Sequence record: NC_073068.1
Origin: Escherichia phage vB_EcoD_Pubbukkers
Length of the DNA stretch: 44,476 bases
Strand: one strand, 5' to 3'
Shown here piece by piece: positions 29,705-39,940 of this stretch; within the stretch, counting starts at the first letter, position 1, and every line of letters begins with the position of its first letter. The notes under the pieces were generated by a model. The model was not told the origin of the DNA and did no database searches. It worked only from the letters and a program-made list of their open reading frames with translations. The position numbers and the translations under genes were made by a program.

Positions 29705-29983
29705 CTATGCGACCAATTCAGCAACCAATAAATCGCAGTCGGATATGTTGTCGATAACGCGAACGTCAGCACCGCGGCGGGCCATTCGCTCATGTTCACG
29801 TACCTGGTGCGGCTTCGGTTTTCCTCCGGGGCGCTTCACTTCGACGAACACTATTTTGCCGTTGATGATAATAATCAGGTCGGGCGCACCTGCGCGCCCC
29901 TCCCATGCCAGTTTTCGGCAGAATCCGCCTACCTCTTTCACCCGTCGCATCAGGTGACTTTGAATCTTGCCTTCTGGTGTCAT
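29705..29983 (-). CDS. VRR-NUC domain nuclease
   Basis: 92 aa; PD-(D/E)xK-type core DLIIIINGKIVFVEVKRPGGKPKPHQ typical of VRR-NUC; start overlaps the polymerase stop. Confidence 0.7.
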   Translation of the reverse strand: MTPEGKIQSHLMRRVKEVGGFCRKLAWEGRAGAPDLIIIINGKIVFVEVKRPGGKPKPHQVREHERMARRGADVRVIDNISDCDLLVAELVA

Positions 29984-32900
29984 TACTTCCTGTACCTGTA
30001 CATGATGTCGCCTTCAGCGGCAAGCGGGAAGCCTTTCGCCCAAATAGGCAGGTCGCACATCAGCGCGCAAAGCTCCTCGGTCGTGTAGTCGTCGGTGTCC
30101 GGAACTTCGGTGATCAATTCATCGTGCACTGACAGGACGATTTCATATCCGGCAGCTTCAACGCCAGGCATGGACCACGCGAGGATATCGCGGCACAGCG
30201 CCTGTACGATGTTTTCCGTCAGTTTGCCGCCGTAGGTGTACTGGAACCCCCACTGGCGCGTCGTCTGATTCTCGCCCTGATATTTAATGCGGGTGCTGGT
30301 GCGCTTCTTGCCGGTGTCTTCGTCAATCTCGGTCGTGACCGACAGCGCGATGCCGGGGTAACTCATGATGCGCCCCGACGGCAACTCAATTTTCAACCAC
30401 CACCCCGCGGCGTTCGGGTCGTCGCGCTCCTCGTCAAAGGTTGGGTCGTGCTTCGCCTTCGTACGGACAATCTTGAGCGCTTTTCTACCGTCCGGGCGAA
30501 CGGTAGCGCCAGCCCAGTATGCTTTGCCCGGATTGCGTATTGCACACAACACCGCGTCCTCAAGCTCGGCCCAAAAGGCTACCGTCTTCGGGTGCGCCTC
30601 TCGCCACATGCGTTTAATCGCATCACACGTAAGCCATACGTTTTTCGGCAGTATGTAAGTCGGGCGCTCGTCCTTCTTGCCCGGCTTCGGCGGTCGCTTC
30701 GCTTCGTTAATGCGGGCGTACTCATAACCCCGTTTAGCCGCTGCCCAAATGTGATTGGGGAATGTGCCCTTCATGACGTCCGCCATCGCGTAAAGGTCGA
30801 GGCCCAGGTTTTTAGCGAACTGCAAGAACGCCGCGACGCCGCCACCATAGCCCAGGCCAAGCTCGCAGTTATGCGCCACCAGAAAACCAGACTTAGACGC
30901 AATAAGGAACCGGTTTCCGTCTTCCACATCAATCAGGTCGTAAACCGGCTCGCAATAGGTTAACTTCCCGTTCCAGTTCAGCAATGCGGGTAAGGGCTTC
31001 ATCGTACTTTCGCTGAAGCTCGGGCACGCTGCGCCGGTTACGGCAGTTTTCCGAACGGCTGACAAACCGAAGGTTTCCAGGCTCATAGTTGCTGTCTGTA
31101 TCGATCCGGTCCATTTCGAAGTCTGGATTATCCCAGCCGTCCAGCGTTTGAACGTAGAGAAGAAACGACCTTTTATCTCTCTGCCATTCGTCACATACGG
31201 CAATCCCACGACCGCCGTAGTTTTTATACCCTTTGGCGCGGGGGTTTGTCGTTCGTGATATTGCCGCTGACAGCCGGTTGAGCAACCGCGTTCTGTGCGC
31301 ATCGTCTGGCATTGCGTCATCGTAGCAAAAATACTGTTTACGATACCGCTTTGTCGCTTCAATTGCGCAGAGGTTGCATTGGGATGTTTTACCCCTTCGG
31401 ACGTTGTCATACCCGACGCGTCCTGGCATCGCTCCGCAATCACATTGGGCCAGCAGTTGTCTGTGCCCCTGTCGTTTTGGTAATTCGCGCAGGATAACCA
31501 GGCGTCCATACCTCTCGCCAGGGCGCGGGCCATCGTGCACCTGTCTGAAACGAGTTGCCTTGCCTCCTTCCATGAATGCGTCAAGATTTTGTGGTCTTCT
31601 GTCATCAAGACCCCGTCCACGTCTATCACTGGTTTCCACCCCATAAGGTGCGCGCCTTTTGTACTCACCCATTTTTCGCCGTTCCATACTTTATCCGTTG
31701 ATGTTACGGCCATAATATCCTTGAACCCGCCATCGGTCAATACTTGGGTATGGCGGTGCAAGCAAGCCTTCCCTATCTGGCGTAAGTCCTTGCGGTTAGC
31801 TTTAATGTAGTCCGGGTCCAGGCCGAACATCTTACCGGCAGTCTCACAATAGATATCACGACCGGCCTTAAACACCATTAGCGCGGTTTTCTCGCCAGCG
31901 ATCCAGGCAAGTCCACGCCCTTCCACGTTGGAGTAGTCCGCTACGACAAACTTCTTGCCCTTAGCCGGGATAATGCACCCGCGAACGGTCGAGGCTGTTA
32001 GCTTCGATATGTCGTACGCCCAGTGTGCGGTCCCGCGTAGCAGGGAATTGATGCCGTTGGTGAGCATGTGCGACCGGACCCAAAAAGCAACGTCGCTCTC
32101 GCCTTCGCGGCGCTTAATCTTCCCTTCGTGATCGTCGCTATACTCGCCGCGTGCCAGGTTTTGAGGCTGGAAGCCTTTACCGGCCCAGCGTAGCGTGCGC
32201 TTTGCCCCTCCATACTGAAGACAACCTCGGCGGCGACCGTCGGCGGATAGGCCATTAACGAGCGGATTGTACTTAGTCGACGCCGTGGATGACGCACCGA
32301 GGCGCATCTCGATAAGCACTTTGCCCTCGTCGGGGAAGTCTGGATCTTCCAGCAGGTCGTTAAGCGTGGATTTCTGCGCATTGTGGATTGTGAACGCAGG
32401 CGCGAGGTCGCGCAGCGCTGGCAGGAAGTCATTGCCGGTCAGCTTACCGCCGAAGCGCTCCCAGGCTTCTTCCTTCAATTCTTCCTTATGCGCCTGCACC
32501 GCTTTGATCGCGGCGTTCGCCAGGTCAACGTCCACATAGAAGCCGCGGTCATTGATCAACTGGTCGATAAGCAGGATTTCATCTTCCTTCGGGGTATTAC
32601 CCCAGTCCGGTATGCGCCAGTAGACCTCCCGCATCGCGATAATATCCAGCGCGGCATATCGCAGAAATTTGGCCCATTCTTCAGGGTGAGTCTCGCGAGT
32701 GTAGCGGCGGATTTTGTAAGTCTTAGGGGTAGGCTTGCAGAATCGTTTAATCAGCGCCTTGCCTGCCTTATCCTTCGCGTGCTCTGCGTCAACGCCCAGC
32801 ACCTGACACTGCATATCGAGGCTGCCCGGCAGCGCGTGCCGAAAGGCCATAATCATGGTATCTTCGATCTGGCTTACCGGCAGGTCGATTCCCCACTTTT

Positions 32901-33171
32901 CACGGATAACCAGGCGGTCAAACAGGAGGCCGTTAGCCATCACGATTTTTGCTTTCTTGCGGGATACCTGACGGAGCGCCTTGCGCAGTTCACGCGGCAT
33001 TGTTGGTGATTCAGTGGCATCCCATGTCTGCACGCGGCCTTCGTCGATGGCGTAGGTGCAAATCATGATCTCGGTGGTTGGGTGCTCTGCGTAGGCGTAC
33101 GCCCCTACTTTCTTCAGGTCCACCCCGCTAAATGTCTCGGTATCGAGAAACAGGCGTTCAAAGTTTTTCAT
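29983..33171 (-). CDS. DNA polymerase I family (3'-5' exonuclease plus polymerase) interrupted by an intein
   Basis: 1062 aa; Exo I FLDTETFS; motif A VADYSNVEGRGLAW; motif B split as RQIGKA | intein | CELGLGYGGG; motif C VLSVHDELITEV. Intein residues 470-768 carry block A (CLHRHTQVLTDGG), block B (ILTHSW), block F (VYDLIDVEDGNRFLIA) and block G (FLVAHN followed by +1 Cys). Confidence 0.85.
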   Translation of the reverse strand: MKNFERLFLDTETFSGVDLKKVGAYAYAEHPTTEIMICTYAIDEGRVQTWDATESPTMPRELRKALRQVSRKKAKIVMANGLLFDRLVIREKWGIDLPVSQIEDTMIMAFRHALPGSLDMQCQVLGVDAEHAKDKAGKALIKRFCKPTPKTYKIRRYTRETHPEEWAKFLRYAALDIIAMREVYWRIPDWGNTPKEDEILLIDQLINDRGFYVDVDLANAAIKAVQAHKEELKEEAWERFGGKLTGNDFLPALRDLAPAFTIHNAQKSTLNDLLEDPDFPDEGKVLIEMRLGASSTASTKYNPLVNGLSADGRRRGCLQYGGAKRTLRWAGKGFQPQNLARGEYSDDHEGKIKRREGESDVAFWVRSHMLTNGINSLLRGTAHWAYDISKLTASTVRGCIIPAKGKKFVVADYSNVEGRGLAWIAGEKTALMVFKAGRDIYCETAGKMFGLDPDYIKANRKDLRQIGKACLHRHTQVLTDGGFKDIMAVTSTDKVWNGEKWVSTKGAHLMGWKPVIDVDGVLMTEDHKILTHSWKEARQLVSDRCTMARALARGMDAWLSCANYQNDRGTDNCWPNVIAERCQDASGMTTSEGVKHPNATSAQLKRQSGIVNSIFATMTQCQTMRTERGCSTGCQRQYHERQTPAPKGIKTTAVVGLPYVTNGREIKGRFFSTFKRWTAGIIQTSKWTGSIQTATMSLETFGLSAVRKTAVTGAACPSFSESTMKPLPALLNWNGKLTYCEPVYDLIDVEDGNRFLIASKSGFLVAHNCELGLGYGGGVAAFLQFAKNLGLDLYAMADVMKGTFPNHIWAAAKRGYEYARINEAKRPPKPGKKDERPTYILPKNVWLTCDAIKRMWREAHPKTVAFWAELEDAVLCAIRNPGKAYWAGATVRPDGRKALKIVRTKAKHDPTFDEERDDPNAAGWWLKIELPSGRIMSYPGIALSVTTEIDEDTGKKRTSTRIKYQGENQTTRQWGFQYTYGGKLTENIVQALCRDILAWSMPGVEAAGYEIVLSVHDELITEVPDTDDYTTEELCALMCDLPIWAKGFPLAAEGDIMYRYRK
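30868..31764 (-). mobile_element. intein inserted in DNA polymerase motif B
   Basis: 299 codons between extein residues ...RQIGKA and CELGLGYG...; starts with Cys, ends with His-Asn followed by Cys; canonical Hint blocks at both ends; the central ~180 codons show no endonuclease motifs in the polymerase frame. Confidence 0.8.
30929..31687 (-). CDS. HNH homing endonuclease encoded in the -1 frame inside the polymerase intein
   Basis: 252-aa ORF offset by one nucleotide from the polymerase frame; contains GRLVILREL...CDCG...SQCNLC, KGYKNYGGRGIAVCDEW and DRIDTDSNYEPGNLRFVSRSENCRNR (HNH core). Likely true start at Met39 (31573); no strong RBS seen. Confidence 0.6.
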   Translation of the reverse strand: MERRKMGEYKRRAPYGVETSDRRGRGLDDRRPQNLDAFMEGGKATRFRQVHDGPRPGERYGRLVILRELPKRQGHRQLLAQCDCGAMPGRVGYDNVRRGKTSQCNLCAIEATKRYRKQYFCYDDAMPDDAHRTRLLNRLSAAISRTTNPRAKGYKNYGGRGIAVCDEWQRDKRSFLLYVQTLDGWDNPDFEMDRIDTDSNYEPGNLRFVSRSENCRNRRSVPELQRKYDEALTRIAELEREVNLLRAGLRPD

Positions 33172-33338
33172 TGCTTAATCCTCACTACGGCGTCCGCGCT
33201 GCCGACCATGGAGAAGATGCCGTCAGACAGGGCAATCTCTTCGCCATTGTTGCGAATCTCGGCAACTGTGAAATATTCCCCCAGTAGCTTGGACCATACT
33301 TGCATTCCGACTTTTACTTCGCTGGCTTTAATACGCAT
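33168..33338 (-). CDS. small hypothetical protein translationally coupled to the polymerase
   Basis: 56-aa ORF (MRIKASEVKVGMQVWSKL...) whose stop overlaps the polymerase ATG (ATGA); AGGA upstream. Below the ORF-track size cutoff; found by reading. Confidence 0.4.
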   Translation of the reverse strand: MRIKASEVKVGMQVWSKLLGEYFTVAEIRNNGEEIALSDGIFSMVGSADAVVRIKQ

Positions 33339-33357
33339 TTTTCATTGTCCTATTTAA

Positions 33358-33380
33358 AAGCCCGCATTAAGCGGGCTTGA
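33358..33380 (-). terminator. possible terminator on minus strand
   Basis: AAGCCCGC-attaa-GCGGGCTT stem (plus 33358-33378) followed on the minus strand by a short U/A run; downstream of the SSB-like gene. T-tract is weak. Confidence 0.35.
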
Positions 33381-33396
33381 ATAGTGGGCTTTGCCC

Positions 33397-34173
33397 TTAA
33401 CGGCGGCGACGTTTACGTGGCGCTTCGTCTTCGTCGTCGTCCTCATCTTCGTCATCGCGTGGCTTACGACGTTTACGTGGTGCTTCATCTTCGTCGTCGT
33501 CATCGCGGCGCTTGGACTTTTTGGACTTGCGCGGCTTGTCGTCTTCGTCATCGTCATCACGACGTTTTGACTTTTTGGACTTACGCGGGCTTTCGTCTTC
33601 GTCATCGTCGCCCAGGTCTTCGTCGGAACATGAAGACCCGCCACCTCCGAAGGCTTCGCCGTCTTCACGGAATCGCAGACCCAGCAAGCCTGCCCCGAGT
33701 CCCTTGCCGTTGGTATTGTTCCACGCCCAAATATCAAGGGACACGTTGCAATAACAACCGGAGTAGATCTCCTGGCCTTCAATCTCGTCGCCTTCTACGG
33801 TCAGACCTTGTTCAGTCTGCTTCTCGCCGAGTGACGTTTGAATGATAGGCTGTTTGAACGATTTGGCGTTGATATACAACATGCCTTCGAATTCTTCGGT
33901 CACTTCGTCGCGCTCGTCACCGTCGCGGACTGCGCATTCCTTCGAATCCTGGGCGTAGTGGCGGTCCATCCACTTATCGGCATTCTTCTCGGATTTCAGC
34001 TTGTCGGTGAGCACTGCGCGCGCTGCCGCTTCCACTTTGTCCACCTGCGGATCTTCTTTATCCAGAAGAATCACGGCACGGTATGCCGGTTTTTGCCCAT
34101 CCTGTTTAGGGGTATCACGTTCCCAAATTTTAAGGAAGCATACGCGCACATTTTTCAGGTTGACTTTAGCCAT
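33397..34173 (-). CDS. ssDNA-binding protein-like (DUF2815-like N-domain) with alternating acidic/basic repeat tail
   Basis: 258 aa from ATG 34173 (MAKVNLKNVRVCF) with RBS GAGGAA; C-terminal ~80 aa are repeats of D/E-rich blocks followed by PRKSKKSKRR-like blocks, ending RKRRRR; encoded by imperfect tandem DNA repeats. Confidence 0.5.
   Translation of the reverse strand: MAKVNLKNVRVCFLKIWERDTPKQDGQKPAYRAVILLDKEDPQVDKVEAAARAVLTDKLKSEKNADKWMDRHYAQDSKECAVRDGDERDEVTEEFEGMLYINAKSFKQPIIQTSLGEKQTEQGLTVEGDEIEGQEIYSGCYCNVSLDIWAWNNTNGKGLGAGLLGLRFREDGEAFGGGGSSCSDEDLGDDDEDESPRKSKKSKRRDDDDEDDKPRKSKKSKRRDDDDEDEAPRKRRKPRDDEDEDDDEDEAPRKRRRR
33408..33610. repeat. imperfect tandem repeats within the SSB-like gene 3' region
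   Basis: Two ~35-bp units (cgacgtttacgtggYgcttcRtcttcgtcgtcgtc) and two ~45-bp units (ttggactttttggacttRcgcgg...tcgtcttcgtcatcgtc) encoding the charged repeat tail. Confidence 0.6.
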
Positions 34174-34263
34174 TTTCCAATTCCTCATTTTCACATGTAT
34201 CGGGGTTATTGGAAGCCACCCCGTTCGGCTTGGTTGCTAATCTACTTGGTTGCGCCTTAGCGG

Positions 34264-34506
34264 TCAAGCGTTTTTATTAAAAAGATTTCGTGTCACGTAG
34301 TTGGTGGCGTTCTCGATCCAGCTTAACGGCGGGCGGTCGATATTCCTCTCCACCCAGTCGACGGCAGCGTCGCTATAACCGTTGTCCAGCCAGCGGGTCG
34401 GATGTCGAATCATCCACGCCACCATTAATACGCCTTGTACGCAATGCAGAATAAAACCCAGCGCGCCGAGCAAAAACATCAATAAGATTGCGAATACTTT
34501 ATTCAT
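34264..34506 (-). CDS. small membrane protein
   Basis: 80 aa with N-terminal hydrophobic helix (VFAILLMFLLGALGFILHCV); start overlaps the stop of the upstream nuclease gene. Confidence 0.45.
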   Translation of the reverse strand: MNKVFAILLMFLLGALGFILHCVQGVLMVAWMIRHPTRWLDNGYSDAAVDWVERNIDRPPLSWIENATNYVTRNLFNKNA

Positions 34507-35929
34507 TGCTTAAGTCCTCGTCAGTAGCTTCAGACCACGCAGGGCGCGGGTCGTCTATTGGCGCTAATACCGGTTTAGCCGGTGCGCGCGTGATTTTATC
34601 ACACAGCTTCGCCCATACTTTCGGCTTCTCGTCCTTCAGTACCTTCTCGGCATCGGTAGGACTGAGTAATGTTTCTTTGTACATCACATCGCGCTTGATC
34701 CGGGCCTTAGTGAAGATTTCAATCACTTCGCGTTCGTCCGCCCACTTGCGAATCCCTTCCTTACCGGCAACCATCTTGAGGCCCAGCGATTCGCCATCAC
34801 CCGCCATTACGGCCTTGAATACCGCGGACTCGATAGCCTTGATGTGCTGGCGCATTGCGTCTAGACCCTCATATGCCTTGCGCAGTTCCGCCGCGCTCAT
34901 AGCGCCTGGTGCCGCTTCTCTCTTACTACGCTTCGCACGTCGTGCCGCTTTGCGGGCTTCGCGGGCCATATTGCGGTCGTGATTGGCGCATTCTTCCTCG
35001 GTCGCCACGCTCACGTCGTCGCCCAGGTCTTCGTCGGTTGCCGTTGGAGGTGTCATCGTGTCGATTGCGGCCTTAGCGCGGGCACTACACTGATCCGCAA
35101 ATCGACACCACTGGCACGCATCAACGCTGGGCCGGAAGTCTGCGCGGGTAAGCCCCTTCTTGCCTCGGGAATACGCCTCCAGTGCGGCAATAGCGCGCTT
35201 GGATGCAAACTTCGCGAATATCTCCAGCGCTTCTACCGAAATATCCCACTCCGACGCCCCGCCGCAATACGGCTGGAAGATAACCAGTCGCACGGTTGTA
35301 ATGTCGTACATAGTTTGCAGCTTGCGCAGCAGTCCGAGCGCGTACAACATAAGCTGTTTGTTCTCTTTCGCCTCGACCTTATGCCGCCCGGTCTTCAGGT
35401 CGCCAACAATCAGCATGTACGTTCCATCGGTCTTTTTCATGACCATGACCATATCGGCAGTACCGAACGTTTTAATCCTGTTGCCGTCGATCTCGTAGCC
35501 TGAGTGAAGGACGCGGGTCAGATCGGCGCGCATCTCAAGCTGGACAAACTCCGCCACTTCGAGGAGCGGTCGCCAGTGGTCGATGTACGCGTCGCACTGT
35601 TTCACCATGTCGTCGTTGACCAGTACGCCGCCTTTCGGTGCGTTAGGGTGTGCCTTTACTGGCCCCTTGCCTTCGTTCTCGACGTAGCACCCTTTATACG
35701 TCTTCGCGGTTATCAGCTTCTCACCGGCGATAATGCGGTTTAGCACCACCTCAGATACGGTGTGCATACTCGTACCGTTAATCGCGGCTTGCCCGGATTC
35801 GTTCGGGATATCTTTTTCCACCACCAGGGCGGCAGGGCAACCCATCCATTTTTTAGCACCGGATGGACCAAGTAATGAGTGTTCCGTATTGCTACCGGAT
35901 TGCGTTTTACGTTTTGGTTTAATCGCCAT
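34499..35929 (-). CDS. PD-(D/E)xK nuclease, DUF2800 / Cas4-like
   Basis: 476 aa; N-terminal LGPSGAKKWMGCPA, central VGDLKTGRHK (D-x-K) and C-terminal Cys cluster (ACQWCRFADQCS) as in Cas4/RecB-family exonucleases; adjacent to the SSB-like gene. Confidence 0.68.
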   Translation of the reverse strand: MAIKPKRKTQSGSNTEHSLLGPSGAKKWMGCPAALVVEKDIPNESGQAAINGTSMHTVSEVVLNRIIAGEKLITAKTYKGCYVENEGKGPVKAHPNAPKGGVLVNDDMVKQCDAYIDHWRPLLEVAEFVQLEMRADLTRVLHSGYEIDGNRIKTFGTADMVMVMKKTDGTYMLIVGDLKTGRHKVEAKENKQLMLYALGLLRKLQTMYDITTVRLVIFQPYCGGASEWDISVEALEIFAKFASKRAIAALEAYSRGKKGLTRADFRPSVDACQWCRFADQCSARAKAAIDTMTPPTATDEDLGDDVSVATEEECANHDRNMAREARKAARRAKRSKREAAPGAMSAAELRKAYEGLDAMRQHIKAIESAVFKAVMAGDGESLGLKMVAGKEGIRKWADEREVIEIFTKARIKRDVMYKETLLSPTDAEKVLKDEKPKVWAKLCDKITRAPAKPVLAPIDDPRPAWSEATDEDLSNE

Positions 35930-36117
35930 TATTCCACCCTTGAAAACTGAGCAATGTAATATTCATGTTTAACCCCAGCCCGCTTCGCGGCTTCGTTCAT
36001 GGTAGCCGCCAGTCCTCTGGCGTGAGTCCAGCAGCAATTCCAGTTCTGATTCATAACGATTTCCGGTTGCTCATCGCCGGTAATACGGCAACGAAATAAA
36101 ACAAAGAATATAGCCAT
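35929..36117 (-). CDS. hypothetical protein
   Basis: 62-aa ORF tightly packed between flanking genes. Confidence 0.4.
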   Translation of the reverse strand: MAIFFVLFRCRITGDEQPEIVMNQNWNCCWTHARGLAATMNEAAKRAGVKHEYYIAQFSRVE

Positions 36118-36369
36118 TTATTTTGTCTCCCAGCGGTCAATTGTTTTTGCTTCGGACGCAACGGCGAAGCGAACATATTCCAGATTGGAGTCCGCCCAAA
36201 TATAAAAGTCGGGGTTAGTAAAGGTGGTGCGCTTAATTTGCGCGGGGGTATTGCGGCGTTTGTCTATTACGGCAACGCGGGACTTAAAATTGCCGATGCG
36301 TTCGAATAGCCAATAATACGGGCGCTGGTCGCGGGAGTCCACCGCCTCGATTAGCGTGAAGCGTGCCAT
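36118..36369 (-). CDS. hypothetical protein
   Basis: 83 aa; ATG at 36369 lies immediately after the terminator that follows the acidic-protein gene. Confidence 0.45.
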   Translation of the reverse strand: MARFTLIEAVDSRDQRPYYWLFERIGNFKSRVAVIDKRRNTPAQIKRTTFTNPDFYIWADSNLEYVRFAVASEAKTIDRWETK

Positions 36370-36380
36370 TGTCTCGTCCT

Positions 36381-36410
36381 CTAAAAAGAGGCCCGCTAAT
36401 CTGCGGGCCG
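36381..36410 (-). terminator. rho-independent terminator on minus strand
   Basis: GGCCCGC-agatta-GCGGGCC followed by UCUUUUUAG on the minus strand; separates the first early gene from the rest of the leftward operon with no room for a new promoter. Confidence 0.65.
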
Positions 36411-36417
36411 GAATATA

Positions 36418-36933
36418 TTAATCTTCCAGTTCGAAATAGGTTTCGACGATTTCTTTTAGCTCTTCGTGGAAGTCTTCGACGTCGTCATCTTCCAGCTTGG
36501 CGATTGATTTGATCTCGAACGATTCCAGCAGGTTGTCGAATTCGTCGTTCGCATCGTCGTCATCGCCACCGGCGATAATCGCGGCATACTGTTTGATTTC
36601 GTCGCGCATCTCTGCCAGCGGGTCGGCATCTTTCTTACCTTTGCCTTTCGCCGGTGCTTTCTTAGACTTAGCCGGTTTTTCGTCTTCGGCATCGTCGTCG
36701 TCATCTTCTACGACTTCTTTTTTAGCCTTACCTTTCGCCGGGGATTTTTTAGATTTAGCCGGTTTTTCGTCTTCGGCGTCATCGTCGTCATCTTCGACAA
36801 CTTCTTTTTTGGCCTTAGACGGCTTCTTATCTTCCTGTTTACCAACGGCAGCGCCAACGGTTTCATAATGCTTTGCAATGGTTTCCAGTGCTACTACGCC
36901 GCGAGTGATCAGGTTTACGATTTGCTCAAACAT
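36418..36933 (-). CDS. acidic/basic repeat protein (first gene of the leftward early operon)
   Basis: 171 aa from ATG 36933 (MFEQIVNLITRG) with RBS GGAG; two tandem ~28-aa repeats (KKEVVEDDDDDAEDEKPAKSKKxPAKGKxKK) and an acidic C-terminus; has its own promoter and terminator. Confidence 0.6.
   Translation of the reverse strand: MFEQIVNLITRGVVALETIAKHYETVGAAVGKQEDKKPSKAKKEVVEDDDDDAEDEKPAKSKKSPAKGKAKKEVVEDDDDDAEDEKPAKSKKAPAKGKGKKDADPLAEMRDEIKQYAAIIAGGDDDDANDEFDNLLESFEIKSIAKLEDDDVEDFHEELKEIVETYFELED
36635..36814. repeat. tandem ~90-bp repeat (2 units) inside the acidic-protein gene
   Basis: Units 36635-36727 and 36728-36814 are imperfect copies (ttacctttcgccgg...agccggtttttcgtcttcggc...atcgtcgtcatcttc...cttcttttttRgcc). 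Confidence 0.7.
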
Positions 36934-37129
36934 GGTATATCTCCGATTGGTTAAGTTTAGGTGTCGGCAGTTAACTTCGTCGGTGGCCTTAACATATTGC
37001 CAGGTTACGCGTTCTCCCGTTCGGGTAGTGGACCTGGTTATATAATCACGGTTGGGAATCCTGACACTTCGATCCGGCCCCTGCGTTACCCCTCTCCAGT
37101 TTGCGTCCTGCATCCTGTCGACGGGGTGA

Positions 37130-37159
37130 ATAATAGATTGGTTGCAGGATGGGTGTCAA
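37130..37159 (-). promoter_or_regulatory. sigma70-like promoter for the acidic-protein gene
   Basis: On the minus strand: -35 TTGACA (37159-37154), 18-bp spacer containing TGCAACCAAT, -10 TATTAT (37135-37130); a 7-bp inverted repeat CATCCTG/CAGGATG (37111-37117 and 37146-37152) brackets the -10. Confidence 0.5.
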
Positions 37160-37170
37160 CAACTAATTTC

Positions 37171-37206
37171 AAAAAAAAAAGCGCCGAGGCAAAATGCGAC
37201 GGCGCT
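37171..37206 (-). terminator. strong rho-independent terminator on minus strand (A10 on plus = U10 on transcript)
   Basis: On the minus strand AGCGCCG-13 nt loop-CGGCGCU followed by ten U; stem at plus 37180-37206. Confidence 0.65.
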
Positions 37207-37675: not shown

Positions 37676-39940
37676 ATGAGCTTAATTAAATTCGCTGTAA
37701 CACGACCCGCTAAAAAAGGCGAAAAAGCCAGGGCGGAAAACTTCCAGATGACTACCGAAGAGTTTTTCGAATTTATCAATGATGCGAAAGAAATCTCCTC
37801 GGTGCATATCAACAAGACGGAAGATAAAGCCGAGTATGCGCGCCGCAAGCGTAAGGCCGATGGCATCGTAGCGTATACCAGTGACGGCTTACGCCGCAAG
37901 ACCAGTGCGGTGGACCGCTCGATCCTGTTCTTCGATATTGACCGTACCGACACCCGCACCCTACGCCGCTGCCGTAAGGCGTTCATCGACGCGGGACTGG
38001 AGCACGTCTTCCACACCACAACCGGCGACCGCCATCCGCTGAAAGGCGGCACGCGTTGCGCTCGATTCCTGGTACTCACGGACAAGCCTGTACCGGCTGA
38101 AGACCTGGGCCGTGTCCAGTATGCGCTATTACACCAACTGGGTCTGTCAGATGTGGACTTCGACGATTGCACGAAAGACACAAACCGCCTTATGTACCTG
38201 CCACACCAGCAATCGGTTGTTAAGTGTCACTACGGCAAACGCGCCCGCGTCCGTCGTCTTCTTCGCCTGGCTGATAAGCTGGGAATGGAAAAAGAGGAAG
38301 TCCGCCGCGAACTGACCCAGGGCGACGACGCAGTGGCAGACGGCATTCTGGACTGGTGCTTCCAGGCAGGATTCGAGGAGTTATCTTCCGGGCGGGGCTA
38401 TGAAGTGCCGTGCCCTAACGAACACCTACACAGCGGCGAAGGGTCCACCGCTATTATGGTCAAGGATGGCGAGATCCGTTTCAAGTGTATGCACACCGGC
38501 AACGAGTGTTGCTCGGAACTGAATAGACACCAGCACCTGGCGCTACGTCTTATCGGGATCCCGGACCACCTGAACGTCGAACCGCACAACATGTCACGTA
38601 AGCAAATCGCCGCCATCCTCCCAGGGCTGGACGACGAGGAAGTCGAATCATTATATGAACATATTGTTGATGCGGTTGGCGACGGCGAAGAATACGGCGT
38701 GTGCACCGATGCGGATCTGGATAACGAGCCGGTTGCGCTGTTCAGTAAGCACGACCCGATCATAGAAGGCCTGGTCAACTTCAAATCGACCTGGTATCTT
38801 GCTGGCGAGTCGAACATCGGTAAATCGTTCTACGTGCTGGGGCAAATGGGTGCGGTTGCCGCGGGGATTCCGTTCGGTGGCGCGAAGGTCGTCCAGTCTC
38901 ATTGCTTCTATTTCGACGCGGAAGGTGGCGAAGCCTCTAACCAGCGCAAAGAAGCATTGCAGATTAAATATGAGCACGACCTGGACAAGCTGCACATTAT
39001 CGATCTGCAATCACGCGGCTGGGATATCACCAGCAAATCCGGCTTGCGTGAAGTTATCAGCTTCATCAACCGCACCGCTAACGGCGAGCCGGTTGGCCTG
39101 GTGGCGTTCGACTCACTCAACCAGACTGTCGCGCTGCGGTCCGCCGATGCCAAACCGTTCGACGAGAACAACGCCAGCGATATGGGTGAAGTGGTCAAAG
39201 CGCTGAAGGCCATCGCGGAAAATACAGGCGGCAGCGCGGGCGTCATCCACCACCCGGCGAAGGGTGCAAACGGCAGCAGAACCCCCCGAGGGTCCGGCGC
39301 GCTGCATGGTGCTGTCGATTCTGCGTTCTTCCTGGAACAGCCGGACGACAACCAGCCCGGACAATTGAACCTGTATCATGAGAAGTCACGTAACGGCATC
39401 AAGCAAGCGCCGCGTGGCTTCGTCCTGCTCAAGTGCAAGGTGAAGGTGGATCTCCGCAAGTCCGAGGCGTTCGAGGCGCACCAGTCCACCAGCACCGGGC
39501 CAGACTTCGGCGATGTGGTTGCCGGTTGGGACGTCAAGCCAATTGCCTCCACGCCACGCGACGAGACTCTTTACCTCGTACCGGTCGCCCTGGCACCGTT
39601 CGCCATCGAGCAGGCGAAGTCCGCGGGCAAGGCCGCAGTTAAGGAAGAGAACGCCGCGGGACCGCGCAACGAAAAAGAGAAAGTGCTTTATGCGGCCCTG
39701 GAAAAACTGATGGAAGATAACCCGGACCATACTGGTTTCAGTAAATCGGCAATTGTCCGCCAGGCGGGACTCGCGAAGGGTGGTACTTCGACGAAGGCAA
39801 TCGACGATATGGTCGAGCGCGGCGTACTCGGTTTTTATACCGATCCGCACACCGGGGCCATCTATGGGTCGTCGAATATCGTCATCAAAACGAACATACC
39901 AATCACGCTTTCGGCGACCGATGATGATTTAAAAGATTAA
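37676..39940 (+). CDS. DNA primase/helicase (AEP prim-pol-like N-domain plus RecA-like ATPase)
   Basis: 754 aa; N-terminal ILFFDIDRTD (acidic D-x-D motif as in archaeo-eukaryotic primases); Cys/His cluster (CPNEHLHSGEG...FKCMHTGNECC); Walker A GESNIGKSF and VAFDSLNQ Walker B-like segment. Confidence 0.75.
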   Translation: MSLIKFAVTRPAKKGEKARAENFQMTTEEFFEFINDAKEISSVHINKTEDKAEYARRKRKADGIVAYTSDGLRRKTSAVDRSILFFDIDRTDTRTLRRCRKAFIDAGLEHVFHTTTGDRHPLKGGTRCARFLVLTDKPVPAEDLGRVQYALLHQLGLSDVDFDDCTKDTNRLMYLPHQQSVVKCHYGKRARVRRLLRLADKLGMEKEEVRRELTQGDDAVADGILDWCFQAGFEELSSGRGYEVPCPNEHLHSGEGSTAIMVKDGEIRFKCMHTGNECCSELNRHQHLALRLIGIPDHLNVEPHNMSRKQIAAILPGLDDEEVESLYEHIVDAVGDGEEYGVCTDADLDNEPVALFSKHDPIIEGLVNFKSTWYLAGESNIGKSFYVLGQMGAVAAGIPFGGAKVVQSHCFYFDAEGGEASNQRKEALQIKYEHDLDKLHIIDLQSRGWDITSKSGLREVISFINRTANGEPVGLVAFDSLNQTVALRSADAKPFDENNASDMGEVVKALKAIAENTGGSAGVIHHPAKGANGSRTPRGSGALHGAVDSAFFLEQPDDNQPGQLNLYHEKSRNGIKQAPRGFVLLKCKVKVDLRKSEAFEAHQSTSTGPDFGDVVAGWDVKPIASTPRDETLYLVPVALAPFAIEQAKSAGKAAVKEENAAGPRNEKEKVLYAALEKLMEDNPDHTGFSKSAIVRQAGLAKGGTSTKAIDDMVERGVLGFYTDPHTGAIYGSSNIVIKTNIPITLSATDDDLKD

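Follow-up and report, generated by a model that had tools for sequence, protein, structure and literature searches.

The 44,476-nucleotide sequence of Escherichia phage vB_EcoD_Pubbukkers (NC_073068.1), referred to here as the window, encodes a protein that binds single-stranded DNA (ssDNA), an SSB of the gp2.5/Enc34 type, in which an oligonucleotide/oligosaccharide-binding (OB) fold is followed by a long tail of alternating acidic and basic blocks that ends in a run of arginines. We hold with high confidence that the protein is the replicative gp2.5/Enc34-type SSB of a Dhillonvirus and that its tail has this architecture. Comparison of homologous sequences indicates that the tail departs from the norm at the level of the family, yet is the rule within the phage's own lineage, and at the base of the tail lies a short motif that recurs in two other proteins of the replication module, a nuclease and a primase-helicase. 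The features of the SSB gene are:

33397..34173, minus strand: SSB gene of the gp2.5/Enc34 type, 258 amino acids plus stop (PF10991, phrog_112)
33649..34173, minus strand: OB-fold ssDNA-binding domain, residues 1-175 (AlphaFold2 and Foldseek)
33400..33648, minus strand: C-terminal tail, predicted to be a disordered block polyampholyte, residues 176-258 (sequence, charge-segregation index kappa and model confidence)
33613..33627, minus strand: tail-base motif SDEDL, residues 183-187, a candidate docking motif (motif scan)
33559..33588, minus strand: basic block 1, PRKSKKSKRR, residues 196-205 (sequence)
33505..33534, minus strand: basic block 2, PRKSKKSKRR, residues 214-223 (sequence)
33457..33480, minus strand: basic block 3, PRKRRKPR, residues 232-239 (sequence)
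33400..33420, minus strand: basic C-terminal tip, PRKRRRR, residues 252-258 (sequence and comparison among Dhillonviruses)
33484..33609, no strand assigned: imperfect tandem DNA repeat (Tandem Repeats Finder: period 54 nt, or 18 codons; 2.3 copies, 86% matches, score 187)

The tail reads GGGGSSCSDEDLGDDDEDES-PRKSKKSKRR-DDDDEDDK-PRKSKKSKRR-DDDDEDEA-PRKRRKPR-DDEDEDDDEDEA-PRKRRRR and is made up of four units, each consisting of an acidic run, a residue x, a proline and a basic run. Its 83 residues include 24 D, 10 E, 15 R and 12 K, that is 34 acidic and 27 basic residues, giving a fraction of charged residues of 0.73 and a net charge per residue of -0.08. The charge-segregation index kappa is 0.58, compared with 0.113 +/- 0.046 (maximum 0.34) in 2000 residue shuffles, and the blockiness of the charges therefore far exceeds chance. 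In an AlphaFold2 model of the SSB, residues 177-258 have a predicted local distance difference test score (pLDDT) of 46-58 and no secondary structure, and the tail is predicted to be intrinsically disordered. With these properties it falls among the block polyampholytes, or mixed-charge disordered regions, which are a physical class and not a homology family; the features of canonical SSB tails (short, D/E-dominated, with an acidic-plus-hydrophobic tip such as DDDIPF, DGDF or DDDL) were not found in it. Part of the tail is encoded by the 54-bp imperfect tandem repeat. The initial annotation had described a tail of about 80 residues with alternating acidic and basic units and a basic terminus, encoded by imperfect tandem DNA repeats, and all of this stands; the coordinates it gave, 33397..33640, are essentially right, although the first few tail codons were missed and the strand was left unstated.

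Two further ways of reading the DNA of the tail were considered and set aside. Both KSKKSK units contain TCC-AAA-AAG, a partial match to the dnaX-like C_AAA_AAG, at which programmed -1 frameshifting would meet a stop within 5-6 codons and yield a truncated SSB; the site was rejected because its synonymous positions vary, with AAG-AAG, AAG-AAA or AAA-AAA in loci L005, L006, L010 and L016. Overlapping open reading frames (ORFs) on the plus strand (33384..33845 and 33512..33754) and in an alternative frame of the minus strand (33354..33782) are regarded as by-products of the stop-poor GAY/GAR repeats; there is no sign that they are coding, although no test was aimed at them.

The identity of the protein is supported by several lines of evidence. 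The longest ORF listed for the gene, 33397..34194, opens with GTG; we have taken the gene as 33397..34173 because the ATG at 34173 (MAKVNL…) has a GAGGA Shine-Dalgarno sequence 8 nt upstream and the orthologues of phages SECphi4 and SECphi18 are annotated from the same MAKVNL start, and this ATG is almost certainly the true one. The product matches PF10991 (Enc34_ssDNA-bd, formerly DUF2815; E 2.4e-31, with a score of 109.2 bits where the cutoff is 26, over residues 10-200 when numbered from the GTG) and phrog_112, 'Gp2.5-like ssDNA binding protein' (9e-58). The AlphaFold2 model, which rests on an alignment of 60 sequences, has a pLDDT of 94-98 across residues 1-170, and its best Foldseek matches in the PDB are 4klk, 5odl (Enc34 ORF6; E 3e-12, template-modelling score 0.77), 5odj, 4jg2 and 1je5 (T7 gp2.5). 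On our interpretation of a phmmer alignment at ~22% identity, the Enc34 DNA-contact residues Y37, K46, W150 and N154 correspond to Y31, K39, W150 and N154 of the window SSB, R112 is probably replaced by lysine, and Y156 by a non-aromatic asparagine for which the nearby W152 might substitute; four or five of the six contact residues are retained on this alignment. The orthologues in SECphi4, SECphi6 and SECphi18 are the genetically identified SSB that triggers Retron-Eco8 and, on our reading of a published table, SSB mutations in SECphi phages also give escape from a second system, ShosTA. Selective binding to ssDNA is predicted for the window protein from this orthologue genetics. The matches to PF10991 and phrog_112, the fold and the neighbouring genes all agree with the initial annotation, which had recognised a gp2.5-like DUF2815 SSB in a phage replication module; public records already annotate the gene and its core function, under names such as 'Gp2.5-like ssDNA binding protein' and 'DUF2815 family protein'.

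A search with the whole protein returned more than 100 cluster representatives with alternating tails at identities down to ~26%, the metagenomic clusters carrying up to 13 units, and is biased towards similar tails because its candidates are chosen by shared 5-residue words. An unbiased search, with the OB domain alone against 1.84 billion 50%-identity representatives, gave a different picture of the family: among its 148 best near-full-length hits, 128 lack any basic block, their tails having a median length of 25 residues and mostly ending in F, A, I, L or V, while 9 have one basic block and 11 have two or more. The family norm is thus the short acidic tail that the initial annotation had assumed, as is also seen in Enc34 ORF6. 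Its description of the window tail as unusual holds for the family, in which 128 of the 148 tails are purely acidic and 11 alternating, but not for the lineage, in which the alternating tail is the conserved norm; the tail is accordingly an ordinary feature of the subfamily though not of the family as a whole.

The 106 alternating tails that were collected range in length from 41 to 175 residues with 2-13 basic blocks, and 98% of them are net negative (median net charge per residue -0.12). Their tips are basic in 53, acidic-plus-hydrophobic in 22, acidic in 14 and of other types in 17, with distant homologues ending in DDDVA, DDDDL or DDDDY, and the architecture spans identities from 96% down to ~26%. 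On a neighbour-joining tree of the OB domain, a weak one of 155 columns at ~30% identity, the alternating tail is clustered (14 parsimony steps, compared with 40.1 expected under the null) and occurs in at least two large clades, one of enterobacterial phages and one sampled by loci L018 and L022, in which the SSB genes adjoin GpA-type terminase genes (in L022 also an integrase gene) and the tips are acidic/hydrophobic.

Within the lineage the tail is regular. All 15 of the IMG/VR Dhillonvirus loci with a full gene have an alternating tail, with 2, 3 or 4 basic blocks (224-261 amino acids), and among the 16 Dhillonvirus sequences formed by these loci and the window every length variant is in frame, with the base (FGGGGSSCSDEDL…) and the tip conserved; 14 of the 15 loci end in EDEAPRKRRRR or a sequence very close to it, and the final PRKRRRR is the same in 14 of them. 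The number of units varies from 2 to 4 among phages whose OB domains are 93-100% identical. Codon counts in the style of dN/dS on the base and tip of these 16 sequences were not used, the sequences being too similar and most variants coming from the divergent L016. Relatives of the OB domain were found by tblastn in 671 phage records, from which three more distant ones were sampled: the SSB of Klebsiella phage VLCpiS11a has three blocks and ends in PRRRRR, and those of Jerseyvirus SE2 and the Kagunavirus-like Bas76 have a one-unit minimal form, …DLEDDEDEAPRRERRR, following the pattern …S(V/A)xDLEDDE(E)DEAPRRERRR(N)R, a single acidic run with a basic tip. SSBs 37-58% identical to that of the window end in RRRRR, RRSRR or RRERRR. 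We define a subgroup here, of Dhillonvirus, Guernseyvirinae and metagenomic relatives, by a tail-base [ST]xDDL, one or more units of the form acidic run–x–Pro–basic run, and a C-terminus rich in arginine, and these features are present in the window, in the 15 Dhillonvirus loci, in SE2, Bas76 and VLCpiS11a, and in the cluster representatives P0013 and P0016-P0054. We favour the reading that the tail is selected and is not junk. In the open-access and bioRxiv literature that was searched, we found neither an account of tails of the alternating or basic-tipped kind in gp2.5/DUF2815 SSBs nor one of the shared DxDL motif considered below; papers on SECphi-type SSBs leave aside the 'flexible C-terminal residues'.

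The SDEDL at the tail base, in the context CSDEDLGDD, has three close counterparts in the window:

34511..34525, minus strand: TDEDL at the C-terminus of the DUF2800/PD-(D/E)XK nuclease (ending …EATDEDLSNE; motif scan)
35024..35038, minus strand: second nuclease copy, in a linker (ATDEDLGDD; motif scan)
39917..39931, plus strand: TDDDL at the C-terminus of the primase-helicase (ending …SATDDDLKD; motif scan)

The motif [STA]D[DE]DL occurs exactly four times in the six-frame ORFs of at least 50 residues of the window, each time in a replication protein (SSB, nuclease or primase-helicase), compared with 0.11 occurrences expected, and none of 2000 residue shuffles reached four. The motif-bearing peptides are SCSDEDLGDDDE, SEATDEDLSNE and LSATDDDLKD; we note also a weaker internal copy, CTDADLDNEP, at 38705..38719 in the primase-helicase. 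The motif is conserved in 9 related lineages. The SSB tail base carries a matching S/T-x-D-D-L in each of the enterobacterial-phage lineages L017, L019-L021 and L023-L026, in which the C-termini of the other two proteins are:

L017: primase-helicase ASDEDLE; nuclease ATDEDLE
L019: primase-helicase ASDEDLNS; nuclease ASDDDLE
L020: primase-helicase gene outside the locus; nuclease TSDSDLA
L021: primase-helicase DDSDLEN; nuclease VKDDLGD
L023: primase-helicase ATDGDLE; nuclease VSDEDLSN
L024 (SE2): primase-helicase TTEGDLE; nuclease VTEDDLEA
L025 (Bas76): primase-helicase VTEEDLE; nuclease VTEEDLE
L026 (VLCpiS11a): primase-helicase cut by the end of the locus; nuclease ASDEDLS

In more distant modules a different sequence stands at the same two places:

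L018 and L022: nuclease C-terminus DEFNED; SSB tail base SEFDDDED
L027: nuclease C-terminus EDEFEPLE; SSB tail base DADFDALE
L028: nuclease C-terminus GGFDDLDMNLL; SSB tail base EDEFEDLE

The motif therefore changes together in the nuclease C-terminus and the SSB tail base of these modules, and because of this co-variation across distant relatives the tail base, rather than the polyampholyte extension, is likely to be the docking element.

Comparison with known SSBs places these elements in context. Enc34 ORF6 (5ODJ, 5ODK, 5ODL), the type member of PF10991, shares with the window protein its family, its fold, a disordered C-terminal tail and, on the alignment above, probably most of the DNA-contact residues, and its module likewise contains a DUF2800 nuclease, the SSB and PolA. 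The Enc34 tail is ~29 residues long and purely acidic (16 D/E), with an end …WDEDEDEV implied by a primer sequence (PMC5686142), whereas that of the window has 83 residues with 27 K/R in four blocks and ends in PRKRRRR. The proximal part of the Enc34 tail packs into the concave beta-sheet of a neighbouring molecule, burying 842 Å², and the same packing is seen in both DUF2815 structural-genomics crystals and in T7 gp2.5, and the authors propose that it has a role in higher-order assembly; deletion of the tail unmasks double-stranded DNA (dsDNA) binding, which the acidic tail suppresses (PMC5686142). T7 gp2.5 (1JE5) has the same OB-fold variant (Foldseek E 9e-7) at a sequence identity of ~11-14%, and its tail is without basic blocks or a basic tip. 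The acidic tail of T7 gp2.5 competes with ssDNA for the binding cleft and contacts polymerase and helicase, and the helicase-primase gp4 has a similar acidic tail that shares a site with it; the DxDL motif common to the window SSB, nuclease and primase-helicase parallels this pair. The gp2.5 tail is ~26 residues long and acidic, with an essential terminal Phe (PMC13402713; DARNA preprint 10.64898/2026.02.22.705581).

The SSBs of Jerseyvirus SE2 (gp07) and Bas76 belong to the same lineage (37-40% identity) and the same module as that of the window. They share its tail grammar of S-x-D/N-D-L, acidic run, A-P and arginine tip (…VDDLEDDEDEAPRRERRRNR), and their nuclease and helicase-primase end in T-E-x-D-L-E; they differ in having a single unit (208 amino acids), as against the 2-4 that Dhillonviruses have by tandem duplication. 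In the P12 SSB of PRD1 the C-terminal tail is disordered and carries a conserved basic tip, which has been contrasted with acidic-tipped SSBs, and deletion of this tail lowers ssDNA binding and cooperativity (PMC11886824). P12 differs from the window protein in its unrelated OB-like fold (an open pincer), in serving protein-primed replication, and in a tail without alternating charge blocks. T4 gp32 relies for cooperativity on a basic N-terminal B-domain (the KRKST 'LAST' motif), and for partner contacts and autoinhibition on an acidic A-domain at its C-terminus. It shares the two electrostatic functions that we propose below, with the elements at opposite ends of the protein, unrepeated, and on a zinc-containing OB fold. 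Eukaryotic mixed-charge domains such as that of Nopp140 are also blocky polyampholytes with a high charged fraction, a physical analogy without homology and from another cellular context; one preprint describes length polymorphism of mixed-charge domains through change of repeat number (bioRxiv 10.1101/513978).

We propose that the tail has three parts, an acidic/hydrophobic S-D-E-D-L base, internal acidic–x–Pro–basic units and a conserved arginine-rich tip, of which the units would be multiplied through in-frame tandem duplication and deletion of the 18-codon DNA unit. The base would correspond to the proximal part of the tail, which in the Enc34, DUF2815 and gp2.5 crystals occupies the neighbour's concave beta-sheet, and the C-termini of the nuclease and primase-helicase would use the same candidate receptor, either the groove of the SSB or a partner common to them, for instance the polymerase. 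The acidic blocks would mimic DNA and gate the OB cleft, and the basic blocks, together with the tip, would attach to the DNA backbone, to acidic blocks on adjacent SSB molecules, or to both; such multivalent acid-base contacts would give rise to salt-sensitive cooperativity, with the repeat number setting the valency, and the polyampholyte extension would in this way act as an electrostatic means of tuning both cooperativity and the selectivity for DNA. Because the net charge of the tail is negative, autoinhibition would be retained. The most economical reading is that this lineage may place both electrostatic functions, gating and cooperativity, in one tail. We give the explanation as a whole, comprising a docking motif, duplicable units and an arginine tip as electrostatic modulator, somewhat better than an even chance; the mechanism taken by itself, which draws on analogy with other SSBs, is tentative and falls slightly below that mark.

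Several points weigh against this proposal. The motif was defined post hoc in the window and then confirmed in independent relatives. Its copy in the SSB is internal, ~70 residues from the C-terminus, and those in the nuclease and primase-helicase lie 1-3 residues from the end, so that the equivalence of the copies is not guaranteed; AlphaFold2 shows no confident docking of the SSB tail on its own core. The recorded escape mutations in the SSBs of SECphi4 and SECphi18 (T21P, T56P, F95L, F106V and N152H) are all in the OB domain and none in the tail, and for that reason say nothing about tail function. Finally, the number of units is tolerant of change, from 2 to 4, which means that the internal units are at most quantitatively important. 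A more far-reaching pair of linked readings is doubtful when the two are taken jointly. In one, the basic-tipped polyampholyte tail may mark a mechanistically separate subclass of gp2.5-type SSBs, in which multivalent acid-base 'zipper' contacts, tail to tail and tail to DNA, may drive highly cooperative filaments or condensate-like replication foci, with a valency tuned in evolution by a repeat number of 1 to 13 units; in the other, the relocated tail-base motif (DxDL or DEFxxL) may serve throughout the DUF2815-DUF2800 module as a short linear motif, with the SSB, nuclease and primase-helicase perhaps competing for one docking groove.

Other explanations of the tail account for part of these observations. 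It could be an ordinary but longer polymerase-contact tail, in which the acidic blocks are functional and the basic blocks serve as spacers or balance solubility: acidic residues exceed basic ones in 98% of the alternating tails, distant homologues still end in acidic-plus-hydrophobic tips (DDDVA, DDDDL, DDDDY), and the role of the T7 gp2.5 tail is established (cited in PMC5686142). We consider this unlikely, however, as SSBs of the enterobacterial lineage terminate in a conserved run of arginines, quite the reverse of a spacer, and the minimal Jerseyvirus form retains exactly one acidic run and a basic tip. A neutral low-complexity expansion, by slippage or unequal recombination on GAY/GAR/AAR/CGN repeats and with only the reading frame under constraint, would fit the presence of the tandem DNA repeat, the variation in unit number despite near-identical OB domains, and the behaviour of a neighbouring acidic protein (36418..36933), the linker of which is hypervariable, from 17 to 81 residues, with some natural variants lacking any acidic run. 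It is nonetheless a little less probable again, since the architecture is kept down to ~26% identity and in more than 100 clusters, where the net charge is consistently negative and the acidic–x–Pro–basic grammar recurs, and no SSB sampled from the lineage is without the acidic-run-plus-basic-tip unit. An assembly or sequencing artefact in the repetitive region, a concern raised in the initial annotation, has a negligible probability. Public gene calls for P0005 (vB_EcoS-22664B1) and P0008 do read the tail in a shifted frame (…AMTKMKHRARLRSPNVV…KGKAHYSSPLNAGFLIGQ), probably through assembly indel errors and not biology, and such errors therefore do occur in this region; but the in-frame tail is found in 15 independent IMG/VR contigs, in SECphi4 and SECphi18 and in numerous cluster representatives, including one that represents 537 sequences, and these independent assemblies refute an artefact.

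The remaining explanation, that the repeats of the SSB tail and those of the acidic protein form a shared module exchanged by recombination or gene conversion, had also been suggested in the initial annotation. The features of the second gene are:

36418..36933, minus strand: small acidic replication-module protein, 171 amino acids, phrog_3127 (PHROGs; variable charged linker)
36640..36810, minus strand: two 28-residue repeats in the acidic protein, KKEVVEDDDDDAEDEKPAKSKK[SA]PAKGK (Tandem Repeats Finder: period 87, 2.2 copies)

This protein consists of an N-terminal hydrophobic helix, a charged linker with the two repeats, and an acidic helical C-terminal domain with aromatics at its end (…TYFELED, …KYFEEE; …DDDDI in a distant member). 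It is conserved as part of the replication module of Dhillonvirus, Jerseyvirus SE2, Bas76 and VLCpiS11a, with homologues at the same module position in L017, L019, L021 and L023-L026; Pfam gives only a sub-threshold low-complexity hit (BUD22), PHROGs places it in a family of unknown function, and all 106 of its homologues are labelled 'hypothetical' or unnamed. The best DNA match between the two genes is 41 nt long, 83% identical and in frame; a match as good arose in 3 of 500 codon shuffles and, when the charge blocks were preserved, in 20 of 1000 (p ~0.02); the peptide DD.EDE.P.KSKK is common to both proteins, and the match is significant in two other Dhillonviruses, L015 (0/300) and L012 (1/300). 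The same shuffle tests were non-significant in L004, L007 and L009 and in the more distant L017 and L019, the last two of which have charged repeats in both the SSB and the small protein. Moreover, every match is short (30-70 nt), keeps to the same frame and is built from the two-codon families GAY, GAR and AAR; by our own count the same codon is used at 7 of the 10 positions of identical amino acids in the 41-nt alignment, which we judge to be no more than codon bias would give, and the repeat numbers of the two genes vary independently, with no correlation. For these reasons the resemblance between the sequences is real in that both follow one grammar, acidic run–x–Pro–Lys-rich run, and we regard an exchange as improbable. 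The shuffle tests on the Dhillonvirus loci and on L017 and L019 gave no evidence of recent recombination between the two genes, and an ancient common origin of their repeat regions cannot be shown.

The SSB gene is flanked by putative expression signals:

34239..34267, minus strand: sigma-70-like promoter TTGACC-17-TAGATT, immediately upstream of the SSB gene (consensus scan, weak alone)
33350..33384, minus strand: terminator-like hairpin ~20 nt past the SSB stop, with an 8-bp GC-rich stem followed by UUUU

The hairpin has a minimum free energy of -23.7 kcal/mol (z = -5.7 compared with shuffles) and was missed by a simple terminator scan. In SECphi4, Retron-Eco8 escapers have been placed in the intergenic region that lies upstream of the SSB gene. 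The surrounding replication module includes the DUF2800/PD-(D/E)XK nuclease (34499..35929), PolA (29983..33171) and an AAA_25 primase-helicase (37676..39940), and the order of its genes is the same in L017, L019, L021 and L023-L028. The 3.9-kb region 33300..37200 is matched by 178 phage records, 156 of them at 90% identity or more and the best at 95.7%, which include vB_EcoD_Over9000, SECphi18 and Sodalis phage SO-1, and by these sequence relationships the window phage is a Dhillonvirus, an HK578-like E. coli siphovirus. The records that bear the names 'Campylobacter phage A144' and 'Acinetobacter phage NJ01' show ~94% identity to the same region; their host labels look doubtful, and contamination or mislabelling is possible.

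Two neighbouring genes merit comment. Directly downstream of the SSB gene lies a 56-codon ORF, 33168..33338 on the minus strand (MRIKASEVKVGMQVW…, phrog_10102), the orthologues of which, with one residue different, are listed as 'protein of unknown function (56aa)'; an E21 frameshift in this protein is among the SECphi18/SECphi6 defence-escape mutants in the supplementary table of a preprint (bioRxiv 10.1101/2022.08.27.505566). The PolA ORF (29983..33171, minus strand) encodes 1062 amino acids, compared with 726-751 in L017, L019 and L021, and contains an insertion of ~310 residues that starts CLHRHTQVLTDGG, ends LVAHN|C and looks like an intein; a 252-residue ORF in another frame of this insertion (30929..31687, minus strand) has HNH/AP2-like motifs. 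The polymerases of L020 and L023 are also ~1030-1050 residues long. In SE2 (L024, 6676..9775) the DNA polymerase is annotated as two consecutive coding sequences, gp06 and gp05, which a split gene or an insertion could explain and which recalls the insertion in the window polymerase.

Nothing is overturned by this analysis, as the identity and core function of the protein are as annotated, and the tail is real and conserved, yet a low-complexity elaboration of a well-understood protein. SSB tails are usually described as acidic interaction hubs; the present lineage, a large and well-sampled one to which Dhillonvirus, Jerseyvirus and Kagunavirus-like phages belong, has an arginine tip in place of the acidic one, and the Dhillonviruses inflate the tail into a repeat array. 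The co-varying motif provides a concrete and cheaply testable docking hypothesis. Since Retron-Eco8 is triggered by these SSBs, and mutations in them allow escape from ShosTA, some of the biology may be missed with constructs made without the 'flexible tail'. The finding bears on the replisome of very common therapeutic and model coliphages, SECphi4, SECphi6 and SECphi18, which serve in studies of anti-phage defence, being closely related to the window phage, and the tail could teach how disordered charge patterning tunes the cooperativity of an SSB and its choice between ssDNA and dsDNA.

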